A DNA stretch of 64,000 nucleotides from an uncultured Clostridia bacterium (GCA_947625855.1 CANQPW010000001.1:10969-74968); one strand, 5' to 3'. Positions 5,401 to 16,554 are shown, counted from the stretch's first letter. Made by a program: numbers and translations. The notes: generated from the sequence alone by a model not told the origin.

Positions 5401-5500
5401 TTAAGCCTACCTCCAAAAAACATTATATACTAAATTATACATAAAATCAATAATCAAACAAAGAAAAAAGGCCGTATATTAATACAACCTAATTAAAAAA

Positions 5501-5623
5501 CTAATCTATCTTGATAACAGATGCTACAATTTTTACATCTGTTTGTACTATTTCTTTAGTATCCAATTTTACCACTTCACCATTAAAAATAATTAATGGT
5601 AACTCAATTTCATCAGTATGCAT
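5501..5623 (-). CDS. Small hypothetical protein (40 aa) upstream of ymdB
   Basis: ATG at 5623 preceded by a strong AGGAGGAGGG RBS. It encodes MHTDEIELPLIIFNGEVVKLDTKEIVQTDVKIVASVIKID. Too short for the ORF track and I do not recognise a family. Confidence 0.3.
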   Translation of the reverse strand: MHTDEIELPLIIFNGEVVKLDTKEIVQTDVKIVASVIKID

Positions 5624-5862
5624 ATAGCATCCCTCCTCCTTTTTAAAATGTGAGACACATTTAAAGTAATCACTTTAAAATAAATTCTCAACCTTTATTA
5701 ATTATAACATACAATACCATATTATGTCAAGAATTGACAAAATCACTTTAATATTGTAATTTTGTATTTGTCAAGTAAAAAAGGAAAAAATATTAAAAAA
5801 ATTGTAAATTTATTAATTTTTTTAAAAATATAGTTAAAAACCTTTACTATCCCCTATTTTAT

Positions 5863-5892
5863 TTGAAAAGTAAACATAAAAAATGGTATAAT
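5863..5892 (+). promoter_or_regulatory. Putative sigma-A promoter with extended -10 (TTGAAA, 18-nt spacer, TGgTATAAT) reading into the GC-rich island
   Basis: -35 TTGAAA at 5863-5868; -10 TATAAT at 5887-5892 with TG at -15/-14. Orientation matches ORF 6105..6560. Confidence 0.4.
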
Positions 5893-6104
5893 AATAGTAT
5901 GAGAATAATTATTTAGAAGTTAACACAATTGTGGGAACTTGATTATCCAAATTGTGTGGCTTCTTTTTTAAAAAAATGCCTGATTTTTAGGCATCATAAA
6001 GGGTCTCCTGAAGAGGGAGAAAGGCGAAAGCCTTTTCGCACTAGATTGCGAGAAAAAATAAAACAGGAAAGGAAGCCCCACAATAGGGCAAAGGGAAGAA
6101 AAAA

Positions 6105-6560
6105 ATGAGGAAAGAAGTAGAGAAGGTTTTAGAAATTGTTAACTCTGAATTTGGAGGTAAAGCCCCCACAAGAGGAAACAAGGACATTGCCACTGGGGAG
6201 TATACCTTCCTATGGTACAAAGTCACCGAGTATTCGGAGGAGGAATGCAAGGAATGGGATAAGTTCTTCTCAATCCTCAATGACCTACTCCACAGTGAAG
6301 AAACCCGTACAGCGGTTATCGCCCTGCTTATGGCAGGAAGATTAACCGAGTACGGCTCCAACCCCTTCGGGGATGCCTGGAGAAGCATTAAGCTCGACAT
6401 CCGGCGGGCCTCTGACCTCTTCGAAGAGGCAGAGGAATTCGTGAAGAAAGGAGGACAAATCCTACATATGCCAGTAACCCTGGCAAAATGGAACTCAAAT
6501 CCCGATGAGTTCCTGTGGGATTATACCACGGGGGAGTGCAAAGAAATTTGCCTCTCCTAA
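6105..6560 (+). CDS. ORFan protein (151 aa) in a GC-rich (~50%) island with atypical codon usage
   Basis: Complete ORF with an A/G-rich leader and a downstream terminator. GC is about 50%, against about 27% in the flanks. Arg is encoded mostly by AGA/AGG and third positions are GC-rich (ccc, ggg, ctc, aag, gag). I recognise no family motif. Confidence 0.6.
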   Translation: MRKEVEKVLEIVNSEFGGKAPTRGNKDIATGEYTFLWYKVTEYSEEECKEWDKFFSILNDLLHSEETRTAVIALLMAGRLTEYGSNPFGDAWRSIKLDIRRASDLFEEAEEFVKKGGQILHMPVTLAKWNSNPDEFLWDYTTGECKEICLS

Positions 6561-6567
6561 CAAAAAT

Positions 6568-6605
6568 AAGGTCTTGCATTAATTTGCAGGGCCTTATCTT
6601 TTTTA
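6568..6605 (+). terminator. Rho-independent terminator after the island ORF
   Basis: Stem aaggtcttgca / tgcagggcctt (two U-G wobbles) followed by tctttttt. Confidence 0.55.
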
Positions 6606-6679
6606 AAGTAAATAATATTTCTGTTTTAAAAAAATTTATTTTTTGTTTTGAAAAATATGTAATTCACAAATAATGTATA

Positions 6680-7663
6680 TTATATATTTGCTACTTTATT
6701 TTGTAATAAATTTGATTTTTCACATCTTCCTCCTATTTTATCAATCACTTTATTATTTTTGTATATATAAATTATTTCACAATTATTACTACAACCACTA
6801 CACTCTACACCAACAGTTTTAAATGCTACATCTTTTATATTGAAGTCAAAATCTATTTCTTTTTCTTCTTTATTTGCTTCTTTTGATAAAATTGCTATAC
6901 CAAGTGCTCCCATAAGATGTGAATTTTCATCTACATATATTTTTTTATTTAATTCATTTTCAAATGCTTTTACTACCCCTTTATTTTTACTTACACCACC
7001 TTGAAATACTACTTTATCTTCTATTTTCTTTCCTCTGGATAAATTATTTAAGTAATTTTTAACAACACTATTACAAAGTCCTGCTATTAAATCTTCTTTT
7101 TTATGACCAATTTGTGCTTTATGAACTAAATCAGATTCTGCAAATACAGTACATCTTGCTGCAATTTTAGATGGTGATTTTGAAGTTAATGCAATATCTC
7201 CCATATTTTCAATATCTATACCTAAACGCTTTGCTTGTGATGATAGAAAAGCACCTGTTCCTGCAGCACATAAAGTATTCATTGCATAATCTACAACAAT
7301 ACCTTGATTAAGTATAATTATCTTAGAATCTTGCCCACCTATTTCAAGTATAGTTCTAACATCAGGATATCTTGACAATGTACCTATTGCATGAGCTGTT
7401 ATTTCATTTTTTATAATATTTGCTCCTACTACATTTCCAACCAAATTTCTTGCAGAACCAGTTGTACCTACTCCATATATTTTTGGAATAATATTTTTTT
7501 CTTTTAATTTATTATCCAAATTTGTTATAACTTTTTTAGTAGCTTCAATAGGGCTACCACAAGTCCAAATATAGTCACTTACAACAATATTTTTATCATC
7601 GTCTATAATAACTGCCTTTGTTGATATAGAACCTATATCTATGCCAATATAATATTTATCCAT
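6680..7663 (-). CDS. BadF/BadG/BcrA/BcrD-type ATPase (CoA-substrate-specific enzyme activase)
   Basis: Acetate/sugar-kinase-fold ATPase; N-terminus YIGIDIGSISTKAVI, GTTGSARNLV, Cys-rich C-terminus. Its start overlaps the stop of the downstream DUF2229 gene. Confidence 0.75.
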   Translation of the reverse strand: MDKYYIGIDIGSISTKAVIIDDDKNIVVSDYIWTCGSPIEATKKVITNLDNKLKEKNIIPKIYGVGTTGSARNLVGNVVGANIIKNEITAHAIGTLSRYPDVRTILEIGGQDSKIIILNQGIVVDYAMNTLCAAGTGAFLSSQAKRLGIDIENMGDIALTSKSPSKIAARCTVFAESDLVHKAQIGHKKEDLIAGLCNSVVKNYLNNLSRGKKIEDKVVFQGGVSKNKGVVKAFENELNKKIYVDENSHLMGALGIAILSKEANKEEKEIDFDFNIKDVAFKTVGVECSGCSNNCEIIYIYKNNKVIDKIGGRCEKSNLLQNKVANI

Positions 7664-9712: not shown

Positions 9713-9873
9713 AATACCACCCTAAAAGTATTATTAGTAATTTTTTCCAGTTAATACCCCATTTTAGAGAATTTATTTTTTTTAAAAGAAATATATGTAG
9801 ATAACAAATAATGTATATTATATATAGTAAGCATAAAAAAATCAAGATATATTTCTATACCTTGATTATTATA

Positions 9874-13403: not shown

Positions 13404-15356
13404 TTAAAAATAACTATTAAAATCATTTACAAGTTTATATAGTAATATTTCTTTAAGTGACCTTTTATCTTGTGATATATTATCATTTATGTAATTTGCA
13501 AGCTTTAGCATATTCTTTTTTTCTTTACTTTTAATTTTACTATTTTCATATCTTATTTTAAAAAGATTTATTACATTATTTAAGTCATAATTTGAAACAG
13601 AAAGTAATTTATTATACAAAAGTTTTACATCAATATTTTCAAATACAGGTATTTCTTTATACTCATCCATTATTAGTTTATAAAACGTTGACATATCTTG
13701 AGGAATATATGATAAAAGTTCTAATGACTTTTTACTTATTATTTCCTTTATTCTTATCTTTATTAATTTATCTTGTTCTTGTTTTAATTTTTCTATATAT
13801 TCATCATCATACTTAAAATCATTTAATTTAAGTACATTTAAGTCATTTACTGTATTATTTACACAAATCTTAAATCCAGATAAAAACACATCATATAGTT
13901 TATCTAAATCATATATTACAAGCTTTACATCTATAAAATACTTAAACATTCCAAATAAAACTATATAGTCATTTAATAAAACACTTCCCTGTTTTACTTC
14001 ATCTAAAACTTGTGTAACTAATATTTCAAATTCAGAATCACTAAGTTTTAAATAATCACCATTTAATATTTTTAAATATTTTTTATTTGAATCTGTTTTT
14101 TCATCATTTAAAGTAGAAATTGCATTGTCAATATCTTCTTTAAATAACCTATCATCAAAATATCTAGTTCTTATATATACTTCGATAAATTTAAAAAATC
14201 TATATTTAGAAAAATTATTTACAAAATACTTATTATCAAATTCTTTAAGATAAAAATTATTTGTATTATTTAAAATATCTGATGTATAAATAACTGATAT
14301 ATATTCATCATTATTTTTTATATCTTTTAATTTTTCTTTACTTATACTACCAGTCTTAATTTCAAATGAAGTTGCAAGTGTAAAGGTAAGCATAGTTTTT
14401 AAAATCTCATTATTTATATTTTCATATTTTGATACTACACTTTCAAATATCTTTTCAAAATCATTTAGTGCATGCTTTAATATTCTTAAATTTTTAGTAT
14501 TTGATTTTCTAAAAGCAGAAATTATTACAGATGTATTTTTCTTTAAGAATTCTGATAGTTTCTCGTTATATGAAAATTTAAGTATCATTCCACTCAAAAT
14601 ATATGCATACTCTGGACTATATTCAAAAGTCTCCCCTATAAGTTTTTCTTTTATTCTTTCATAATCATTACTTTTTTCAAATATTTCAGATATTTCTTTT
14701 TCTATTATACTTGATAAAGGTATTTTATTCTTACCATCATTATTTTTTTGAAGTAAACTATTTTTATCAAGCACATAAGTAGCAATCATAGTTTTAAGTT
14801 CAATATTTTTATTTTTATATTTTAATGCAAGTTCTTTTTCATTACATATAAGTATTGTTTTTATTCCATCATGTTCAACAAAATTATTTATATATCCTAA
14901 TATATCTATAACATCTACATTTGCTCTTTCTAAATCATCAAAACATAATATTTTATCATCTACGGAAAAACTTTTAGAAAAATCTATTTTATCGGAATTA
15001 TAATTTATTTTTCCGAAAAAATTTGCCATATCAAGACCAGTTTTTACATACTCAGGTATCATATTTCCATCTTTTGTATCAGAAATATTTTTTAATGTCC
15101 TATTTATATTAGGACTAGTTTCAATAAATATTTTTTTGCTTATTTCTTCTAAACTATTTATACCATATAATGACATATATATAGTTTTATAATTTTTTCC
15201 ATTTATTTTTATGCTTTCAAGTCTTTTTCTAAGTTTATTGTTCCAAAAAAATGTCTTTCCACTTCCCCATTCTCCATTTATCATTACAGCATAATCAGTA
15301 TATGGCTTTTTTATATATTCACAAATATTTTCAATTAGTTCTTCCAAAATGCTCAC
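13404..15356 (-). CDS. KAP-family P-loop NTPase (650 aa)
   Basis: Walker A GEWGSGKTFF near the N-terminus and Walker B-like ILCFDDLER. Size and layout match the KAP NTPase family. No operon partner apart from the neighbouring membrane protein. Confidence 0.6.
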   Translation of the reverse strand: MSILEELIENICEYIKKPYTDYAVMINGEWGSGKTFFWNNKLRKRLESIKINGKNYKTIYMSLYGINSLEEISKKIFIETSPNINRTLKNISDTKDGNMIPEYVKTGLDMANFFGKINYNSDKIDFSKSFSVDDKILCFDDLERANVDVIDILGYINNFVEHDGIKTILICNEKELALKYKNKNIELKTMIATYVLDKNSLLQKNNDGKNKIPLSSIIEKEISEIFEKSNDYERIKEKLIGETFEYSPEYAYILSGMILKFSYNEKLSEFLKKNTSVIISAFRKSNTKNLRILKHALNDFEKIFESVVSKYENINNEILKTMLTFTLATSFEIKTGSISKEKLKDIKNNDEYISVIYTSDILNNTNNFYLKEFDNKYFVNNFSKYRFFKFIEVYIRTRYFDDRLFKEDIDNAISTLNDEKTDSNKKYLKILNGDYLKLSDSEFEILVTQVLDEVKQGSVLLNDYIVLFGMFKYFIDVKLVIYDLDKLYDVFLSGFKICVNNTVNDLNVLKLNDFKYDDEYIEKLKQEQDKLIKIRIKEIISKKSLELLSYIPQDMSTFYKLIMDEYKEIPVFENIDVKLLYNKLLSVSNYDLNNVINLFKIRYENSKIKSKEKKNMLKLANYINDNISQDKRSLKEILLYKLVNDFNSYF

Positions 15357-15756
15357 CTCTAATTACAAACATTCTATCATATTAATATTTTTTTCGCAAT
15401 AAATGAAAAAAATATACATACAAAAAGCCCTAGATTTTTCTAGAGCCTATTGTATTTGTATTATGTTAAAATTAGTTTCAAAAGTAGAATCTTTTGAAAT
15501 TAATCAGCATTCTTATATTATTATACATTTATTATGTATTATTATATCATATATTTTTATTGCAATCAACTTTTTATTTCAATTTTCTAATTTATTTTTA
15601 CATTTTATTTTTCTATTATACACTATATTATAATTTTTTACAATTATATAAGCATATATATTTTGTGTAAATTCAAAATCAAAAACTAGTCAAATTTCGA
15701 CAAAAATAGACTATTAAAAAAAATAATAACAGACACAATATCTGTTATTACTAATT

Positions 15757-16554
15757 TTATTTATATTTTAAACTTTTTAATACTTTTTCTACATCAGGAT
15801 GAGCAACATTTTCAATATATTTATTTGGTGTTAATAATCTAAATGTTATAACTAAATCACTATTTTTAGATATCACAATATAAAATTTACCACATTCATT
15901 ATCATATGTTGTATAAGCTACATTTGCAACATAAATATTATTTCCTATATTAGTAAATTCTTTTGATTCATTAAGCAAATTATATTGCTCTATTCTAGCA
16001 TTTGATTTAAGCTCTCTATATATTTTATCATATACTTTTTCTCTTTCCTCTTTTTTTGATATATCAAAATCATCTGATAATTTTTCTCTATCATAATATC
16101 TTAAATAAGTATTTTCATCATTTTTATATATTATTTTAAAATACTTTAAGCCTTCTTCTATTTTCCATTTAGTATTATATGTTAGACTATAATATTCATT
16201 TTGATACTCTTTATTAAATATTGAGAAAAAAACACTTGTTAAAACTATTATTAATGCAAGTAATATTCCTACAACACTTAATAATATTTTAGGGTCTCCT
16301 TTTGTTTGTTTCTTTAATTTCAAATCATATACAATACATATAATTCCAATTACCCCAGATGGTATTGATATATACCACCAAAAGCATGTAAATATACTTA
16401 TAAACCCAAATATTAAAGAAAATAAAGCTAATACACTCATCTTACTTGATTTTACATCTTTATACATTTGTGTCCTTATTTTCACATCTTCATTTTTACT
16501 TGGCATAGCAACCTCCATAACCTTATATATTTTAATTAAATTAAATTTTATCAT
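15757..16554 (-). CDS. Hypothetical membrane protein (two TM helices)
   Basis: Two hydrophobic helices (residues ~40-70 and ~90-115) followed by a charged domain. No recognisable family; the start is uncertain (several in-frame Met). Confidence 0.4.
   Translation of the reverse strand: MIKFNLIKIYKVMEVAMPSKNEDVKIRTQMYKDVKSSKMSVLALFSLIFGFISIFTCFWWYISIPSGVIGIICIVYDLKLKKQTKGDPKILLSVVGILLALIIVLTSVFFSIFNKEYQNEYYSLTYNTKWKIEEGLKYFKIIYKNDENTYLRYYDREKLSDDFDISKKEEREKVYDKIYRELKSNARIEQYNLLNESKEFTNIGNNIYVANVAYTTYDNECGKFYIVISKNSDLVITFRLLTPNKYIENVAHPDVEKVLKSLKYK

Follow-up and report, generated by a model that had tools for sequence, protein, structure and literature searches.

A GC-rich single-gene island, probably acquired horizontally, in a variable intergenic slot of an AT-rich gut Clostridia genome

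We identified a short GC-rich island in a 64-kb stretch of DNA (64,000 nucleotides; hereafter the window) from an uncultured gut Clostridia lineage with a GC content of 27%. The island probably represents a protein-coding gene that stands on its own, was gained by horizontal transfer and belongs to no family known so far; it sits in a hypervariable intergenic slot. The presumed insertion site lies between the operon for an acyl-CoA dehydratase activase and the orf40-ymdB-cysE operon, and the gene is an open reading frame of 151 codons that we call ORF151. We observed that the composition of the island is foreign, that the island is absent from relatives, that ORF151 has the statistics of a coding sequence, and that its product is a foldable singleton protein. 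The features discussed below are listed in Table 1.

Table 1. Features of the island and of two further GC-rich ORFs in the window
Feature	Position	Strand	Description or basis
Extended -10 promoter, host-type sigma-70/sigA	5863-5892	+	TTGAAA-18-TGgTATAAT; 11/12 consensus matches plus TG extension
AT-rich first part of the 5' leader	5917-5972	+	CACAATTGTG-type hairpins, then GGCTTCTTTTTT
Left copy of 17-nt direct repeat	5961-5977		TTCTTTTTTAAAAAAAT; repeat search
Hairpin, predicted minus-strand intrinsic terminator	5975-5995	-	Terminator-like site; -7.9 kcal/mol
GC-rich, purine-rich untranslated leader	5996-6104	+	Small hairpins at 6004-6020, 6022-6033 (GAAA loop) and 6034-6053
ORF151, 151 aa	6105-6560	+	ORF and codon data
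Intrinsic terminator	6566-6605	+	13-pair stem 6566-6597, then TTTTTT; -17.2 kcal/mol
Right copy of 17-nt direct repeat	6619-6635		TTCTGTTTTAAAAAAAT; inside DNA homologous to relatives
ORF341, 341 aa	16734-17759	+	Lipoprotein-type signal peptide; GC 0.40, GC3 0.45
ORF176, 176 aa	20086-20616	-	GC3 0.42

The GC content of the window as a whole is 26.55%. When GC was calculated in 150-nt windows, the mean was 0.266 (sd 0.058) and the island reached 0.567, which is the highest value in the 64 kb and more than 5 sd above the mean. In 200-nt windows, GC was 0.42-0.525 over positions 6000-6599 and 0.16-0.27 in both flanks. At finer scale (40-nt windows), the left edge fell at approximately 5990-5996; on the right, the GC-rich core stopped at approximately 6565 and was followed by a moderately GC-rich terminator hairpin that extends to about 6605. 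The core (5996-6565) is 47% GC, and the sharp-edged GC-rich stretch described in the initial annotation was clearly recovered as the strongest peak in the window.

The codon and dinucleotide signatures of the island are alien to the host. GC at the first, second and third codon positions was 0.50, 0.38 and 0.57 in ORF151, compared to 0.40, 0.28 and 0.11 in the host, in agreement with the GC-rich third positions noted initially. Of the 58 long ORFs in the window, those of the host have GC3 values of 0.07-0.27, and only three ORFs (ORF151, ORF341 and ORF176) exceed 0.4. The correlation of relative synonymous codon usage between ORF151 and the host was 0.00. The observed/expected ratio for CpG was 0.58 in the island and 0.25 in the host, and for GpC it was 0.77 and 1.33, respectively; the plus strand of the island is also purine-rich. 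Because host DNA outside the islands combines extreme CpG depletion with an excess of GpC, foreign segments are easily spotted by their dinucleotide signature. Two more specific statements about codon usage did not hold. Arginine was said to be encoded almost entirely by AGA and AGG, and these account for four of the seven arginine codons (AGA 3, AGG 1, CGG 2, CGT 1), AGA being the host's own preferred arginine codon (0.80). An archaeal-like codon usage or archaeal donor finds no support: there was no archaeal or other homolog in the data searched, and the pattern is simply one of GC-rich third positions.

Sharp changes in GC content could also arise if the island were an assembly chimera, or contaminating DNA joined to the Clostridia contig, and the contigs that support the junctions are of low coverage (about 2x). 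By exact-protein look-ups we found two separately assembled ENA contigs that are 100% identical to this locus. The first (L001, ERZ27248980, 1,884 bp) runs from the 5' end of ymdB through orf40 and the whole island to the 3' end of the activase gene; it matches positions 5893-6610 at 718 of 718 nucleotides and spans both junctions. The second (L002, ERZ27060504) covers murA through ymdB and the left junction, ending 181 nt into the 5893-6610 query. Identical junctions in independently assembled contigs indicate that the junctions are not an assembly artefact, and the regulatory signals, which are of host type, fit the ORF. On the evidence of the independent contigs we rejected an assembly chimera, and we consider an artificial join of any kind extremely unlikely.

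The genes around the island are murA, rlmH, cysE, a TIGR00282 YmdB-family phosphoesterase gene (ymdB), the gene for the acyl-CoA dehydratase activase with two DUF2229/HGD-D partners, and the gene for RNase Y (rny). We scanned GTDB species genomes with YmdB and recovered 27 loci, all from metagenome-assembled genomes of uncultured gut Clostridia (mouse, rabbit, human, chicken and deer). The closest of these has 77% identity in YmdB and 94% in RNase Y. The order rny-g309-g370-activase-[gap]-ymdB-cysE was retained in about half of the 27 loci, and in most of the others rny lies directly upstream of ymdB. A search with the activase added nine contigs from the nearest relatives (84-87% identity). 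Most of these carry activase, orf45 (the homolog of orf40), a His_Phos gene, a 222-aa ORF and ymdB, and in two of them (L037 and L038) the gap contains a single 213-aa ORF instead. There was no blastn, nhmmer or tblastn match to the island in the 27 species loci or the nine contigs. The initial annotation had proposed a BLASTN comparison to see whether relatives have an empty locus, and the island was indeed absent at every syntenic locus examined. Because the same ORF was not found at this locus in any relative examined, we could discard the idea of a conserved native gene on the basis of synteny.

The gap between the activase gene and ymdB (5401-6679 in the window) varied from 76 to 1995 bp across the related species (loci L003-L038), and its cargo was unrelated between them. 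The cargo includes a histidine phosphatase, further ORFs of 90-300 aa for which no family was recognised, and several small orphans. Judged from these sequence comparisons, the gap demonstrably behaves as a hypervariable, cargo-swapping intergenic slot between conserved operons. Alignment to relatives showed that homology resumes at or before 5730 on the left, in the promoter region of orf40, and at approximately 6613 on the right, indicating that about 880 bp are new here. This new DNA consists of an AT-rich part with the promoter (5731-5995), the GC-rich core and the terminator. The extent of about 600 bp given initially is therefore correct for the GC-rich part, and the DNA that is missing in relatives is larger (about 5731-6612). 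Similarly, the island is intergenic, as had been stated, but it does not directly adjoin ymdB; the conserved 40-aa orf40 (5501-5623, minus strand) separates the two.

Two conserved elements of this neighborhood were recognised in passing. The orf40 family comprises conserved ORFs of 40-52 aa (MHTDEIELPLIIFNGEVV...) located between the activase operon and ymdB, also in the nearest relatives (L004, 4242-4400; L030, 3649-3786), and has no Pfam match. The second element, AT-rich and approximately 70 nt long (core TATGTATTTCACAAATAATGTATATTATAT), occurs at 6610-6685 and 9750-9830, that is, at both ends of the g309-g370-activase operon. It is kept in relatives (L003, 5060-5140 and 1935-2015) and could be a common operator, promoter or terminator module.

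The regulatory parts of the island bear out the description of a self-contained unit, in that a single, compositionally foreign gene has its own promoter and its own terminator. A consensus scan confirmed the upstream extended -10 promoter at the position given initially, and from its match to the consensus it probably drives the island transcript. The AT-rich first part of the leader is paired with 6060-6088 in the predicted fold and could serve as an attenuator. The purine-rich, GC-rich second part was seen within one nucleotide of the reported limits (5995-6104). It contains a weak Shine-Dalgarno sequence (AAGGGAAG) before ORF151 and stops in frame with, and upstream of, the ORF151 ATG, and no period-3 signal was detected in it. 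Another ORF (5929-6108, plus strand), with a TTG start and 59 codons in a different frame from ORF151, is open through the whole GC-rich leader. Its TGA overlaps the start of ORF151 (ATGA), and the tail of the encoded peptide is strongly basic (RRKPFRTRLREKIKQERKPHNRAKGRKK). This frame may derive from the 3' end of a gene that preceded ORF151 in the donor.

The terminator, placed at 6568-6605 in the initial annotation, was confirmed as a stem followed by a run of T residues. Its form is that of a bidirectional terminator, with the convergent activase operon on the other side, and because there is a run of A residues upstream of the stem it can terminate that operon as well. This terminator is missing in relatives, in which homology resumes only beyond it. 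On the other side of the GC-rich core, the minus-strand terminator predicted from its hairpin would halt antisense transcription leaving the island toward the orf40-ymdB promoter.

Taken together, these elements suggest a mode of expression. The extended -10 promoter would start a transcript with a hairpin-containing leader of roughly 200 nt, and ORF151 would be translated from the weak Shine-Dalgarno sequence that precedes it. The strong downstream hairpin terminator would end the transcript and insulate the convergent activase operon, and the minus-strand terminator would block antisense read-out toward ymdB.

The GC-rich unit is flanked by the two copies of a 17-nt direct repeat (TTCTKTTTTAAAAAAAT) spaced 658 nt apart. 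Allowing up to one mismatch, there are two matches to this sequence in the 64 kb compared to 0.09 expected. One possibility is a target-site duplication flanking an insert of 641 bp, another the footprint of a recombination event; the repeat could equally be a coincidence between terminator tails. No terminal inverted repeats were reported by the repeat search of the window, there was no second copy of the island in the window or in the approximately 40 related loci, and we found neither a mobility gene nor a clear terminal repeat to account for its arrival. A CRISPR or other tandem array was rejected, as the repeat search revealed no periodic repeats.

ORF151 is most likely a real protein gene whose sequence is also unusually rich in hairpins. 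The 151-aa reading frame is exactly as first described. The three codon positions differ in base composition (chi-square 26.8, p = 1.6e-4), the first being rich in G, and in Markov simulations of island-like sequence an ORF of at least 151 aa occurred in 0.4% of trials (probability 0.004). The other frames are less open than had been claimed: over 5990-6565 there are 3-10 stops in each of the five non-ORF frames, and 5 in the frame of ORF151 itself, leaving alternative ORFs of 69, 119 and 63 aa. Single-sequence AlphaFold2 prediction gave a pLDDT of 60.5 and a pTM of 0.61 for ORF151; the control, the 119-aa antisense ORF, scored 37.3 and 0.22. Residues 1-118 have a helix and strand pattern and a predicted alpha/beta fold. 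The protein is acidic (28 D/E compared to 19 K/R) and, by inspection, has no signal peptide and no hydrophobic or membrane segment. We infer from these predictions that the product would be a soluble, acidic, cytoplasmic alpha/beta protein. These properties do not match a type I toxin-antitoxin system, in which the toxin is hydrophobic and under about 60 aa and is paired with an antisense RNA.

Large structured RNAs of AT-rich Firmicutes are conspicuous by their high GC content, and we considered whether the island is a structured non-coding RNA of about 600 nt in which the 151-codon ORF is accidental. Several observations fit this proposal. Minimum free energy z scores were -9.4 for the whole unit (5893-6610), -6.2 for ORF151 relative to dinucleotide shuffles, and -5.1 for the leader (5893-6110). 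In the predicted structure, about 16 local hairpins with GAAA and UCGA-type loops follow one after another, the one at 6305-6355 having 20 pairs. The folding of the ORF is far above that of a normal coding sequence, as a structured RNA would show, and the unit is equipped with a promoter and a terminator of its own. However, no Rfam family matched. A search of the whole window with 4227 models, including OLE, ROOL, GOLLD, raiA, RNase P, tmRNA and riboswitches, gave no match at the gathering score, and a local search at E<=10 gave nothing credible (best 20 bits, compared to gathering scores of 33-85); ARAGORN also found nothing. In addition, the antisense strand of the island folds well, indicating that the signal reflects the density of inverted repeats and not a strand-specific RNA structure. 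The period-3 composition, the length of the ORF and its AlphaFold2 foldability favor coding, and the excess of folding is shared by the other two GC-rich ORFs, at least one of which, with 341 aa, is much longer than chance would allow. We therefore regard a non-coding RNA as distinctly unlikely, and favor a protein-coding gene.

The excess of folding in ORF151 is not a simple consequence of its protein sequence and codon usage. It survived permutation of synonymous codons, in which both are kept (z = -4.5 to -4.9), a dinucleotide-preserving synonymous shuffle of third positions (z = -4.2), and a shuffle of 30-nt blocks (z = -6.9). In the same tests, nine ordinary genes of 35-56% GC gave values of +0.6 to -2.7. 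The effect was moderate in 240-nt windows (z = -2.4 to -5.8).

The two other ORFs with high GC3 have an architecture like that of ORF151, with a host-type extended -10 promoter, a GC-rich coding sequence and a hairpin terminator. Their promoters share the TGNTATAAT form with the promoter of the island. Their leaders are AT-rich with a good Shine-Dalgarno sequence, and the onset of the rise in GC nearly coincides with the start codon. No Pfam or PADLOC family was recovered for either. At 90% identity ORF341 is a singleton, and the sole database match of ORF176 is a copy with a frameshift that comes from the same strain (L039). ORF341 is found between recD2 and the gene for a KAP NTPase, together with a 265-aa membrane ORF (15757-16554); in four metagenomic relatives recD2 directly adjoins the KAP NTPase gene, with neither ORF and no GC island. 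The marginal similarity between ORF151 and ORF176 (BLASTP E = 0.015, shuffle p = 0.0085) does not suffice for a claim of paralogy, and the other pairs showed nothing. Correlations of codon usage among the three ORFs were weak (r = 0.08-0.27) and their CpG ratios differ, so the three probably arrived separately.

This neighborhood also contains two features of separate interest. The KAP-family P-loop NTPase (650 aa; 13404-15356, minus strand) matches PDC-S49, a candidate defence system in PADLOC (E = 1e-79); its gene is conserved beside recD2 in relatives and is 7 kb from the island. The AT-rich intergenic region between this gene and the 265-aa ORF (15357-15756, GC about 0.17) is predicted to form a long, nearly end-to-end inverted repeat, with a folding z score of -5.7 over 400 nt and of -8.7 in one 240-nt window.

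The resemblance among the three GC-rich orphan ORFs allows a different interpretation, in which they represent an undescribed class of hairpin-dense genes whose GC content and synonymous sites have been shaped or inherited at the level of the nucleic acid. Candidate reasons are that the mRNAs resist A/U-directed single-strand RNases in an AT-rich host, that the genes have a dual RNA and protein function, or that their source was an RNA or ssDNA replicon showing genome-scale ordered structure. In synonymous and dicodon-type shuffles, the real sequence folded better in all three islands (z from -2.7 to -6.9; -3.7 and -6.9 for the two halves of ORF341 and -5.1 to -6.4 for ORF176 in the synonymous shuffle), compared to +0.6 to -2.7 for the nine ordinary genes. 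They averaged approximately -3.6 in 240-nt windows, compared to a window-wide mean of -0.8 (sd 1.6), and the rise in GC at the start codons of ORF341 and ORF176, behind AT-rich, host-like promoters and Shine-Dalgarno sequences, points in the same direction. On the other hand, the argument rests on predicted energies and both strands fold, the poor codon correlation and differing CpG speak for separate origins, and no reverse transcriptase, RNA-virus or ssDNA-element gene was found nearby. The cause could also be neutral: G and C may survive preferentially in stems as foreign DNA decays toward AT. Selection on mRNA, a structured donor replicon and the survival of G/C in stems are thus all candidate causes of the hairpin richness. 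We consider a distinct class of genes unlikely as the explanation for the island, and continue to favor the acquisition of a single foreign gene.

The family of ORF151 is new and unplaceable. Profiles from Pfam, PHROGs, NCBIfam and PADLOC gave either no match or only matches with E>0.1. A k-mer and HMMER search of 5.8 billion clusters returned ORF151 itself as the sole match, and its cluster has one member. A full HMMER search of 1.84 billion representatives gave, besides ORF151, just two weak matches to repeat proteins (with EEAEE-type and FxWYKV-type repeats), which we read as compositional. Among PDB sequences, the matches were solely to idealised designed helical proteins (E of 0.0025 or weaker). 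There was no relative of ORF151 in phages and plasmids (tblastn and blastn), in scans of IMG/VR and JGI metagenomes, or among about 15 billion predicted proteins overall, and neither a donor nor homologs in other lineages were identified in the protein, phage, plasmid, viral and metagenome searches. The initial view that the protein belongs to no known family was upheld in every library and database searched. These searches yielded no sequence variants for dN/dS or covariation, as every additional contig (L001 and L002, and L039 for the neighboring island) is from the same strain and differs only by low-coverage indels. We also found no described equivalent of the island in the literature.

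The lack of a donor and of any homolog in the searched databases would also be expected if the island were native to this lineage, whether as a fast-evolving gene or through de novo birth, and had never been transferred. The host-type promoter and terminator fit such an origin, as do a weak internal repeat in ORF151 (FLW..ECKE, present twice; p = 0.02) and the restriction of PDB matches to idealised designed helices. However, DNA with a GC content of 27% and a CpG ratio of 0.25 cannot readily give rise to a segment of 47% GC with a ratio of 0.58, and the closest relatives have no AT-rich precursor at the site. A native origin therefore seems very unlikely, and horizontal acquisition is the better account of the island.

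Several known types of element resemble the island in part. It is comparable to horizontally acquired ORFan 'genomic islets' in variable slots between operons, with which it shares a single gene of atypical GC, codon and dinucleotide composition, absence from the syntenic site, variable cargo in the slot, and no mobility gene. It differs from them by the extreme contrast in composition (most apparent in GC3), by being a strict singleton, by the excess of hairpins, and by the possible 17-nt flanking repeat. The OLE, ROOL, GOLLD and raiA RNAs are similar in size (about 600 nt), in being GC-rich on an AT-rich background, in having many hairpins with their own promoter and terminator, and in their intergenic location; the island is distinguished from them by the lack of an Rfam match, by a statistically supported, foldable ORF, and by folding of both strands. 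Integron cassettes and MITE-like insertions likewise have one small orphan ORF, hairpin-forming sequence and a short direct repeat at their bounds. In contrast, the island carries a promoter of its own and lies alone between housekeeping operons; no attC-like site, cassette array or integrase was noticed, no terminal inverted repeats were reported, and no second copy was found in the window or the related loci.

Orphan immunity and anti-defence genes are also small, acidic, soluble, lineage-specific and monocistronic, and occur at variable loci, and the gene for the KAP NTPase, a PDC-S49 candidate, is 7 kb away; this resemblance serves as a lead. The island differs from them in having no Imm, PADLOC or PHROG match and neither a toxin nor a defence partner next to it, and the cargo of the slot in relatives is metabolic or of no assigned role. 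The immunity, anti-defence or toxin role suggested in the initial annotation remains a guess; no PADLOC, PHROGs or Pfam model matches. The most plausible guess, which is drawn from size, charge and location and which we make with low confidence, is that ORF151 is a strain-specific accessory, for example a binding protein of the orphan immunity or anti-defence type.

As a kind, the island is known: it is one more orphan accessory gene, of a type that is common in metagenomes. It stands out as a clean case, with a very sharp contrast in composition, a protein without relatives, and a demonstrable cargo-swapping slot. If the excess of hairpins common to the three orphan ORFs is due to selection or to origin, it would point to an unrecognised route of gene acquisition in AT-rich gut bacteria, or to an unrecognised form of mRNA protection. 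If the excess is a neutral by-product of AT-biased decay, these genes would provide a natural test of structure-dependent mutation.
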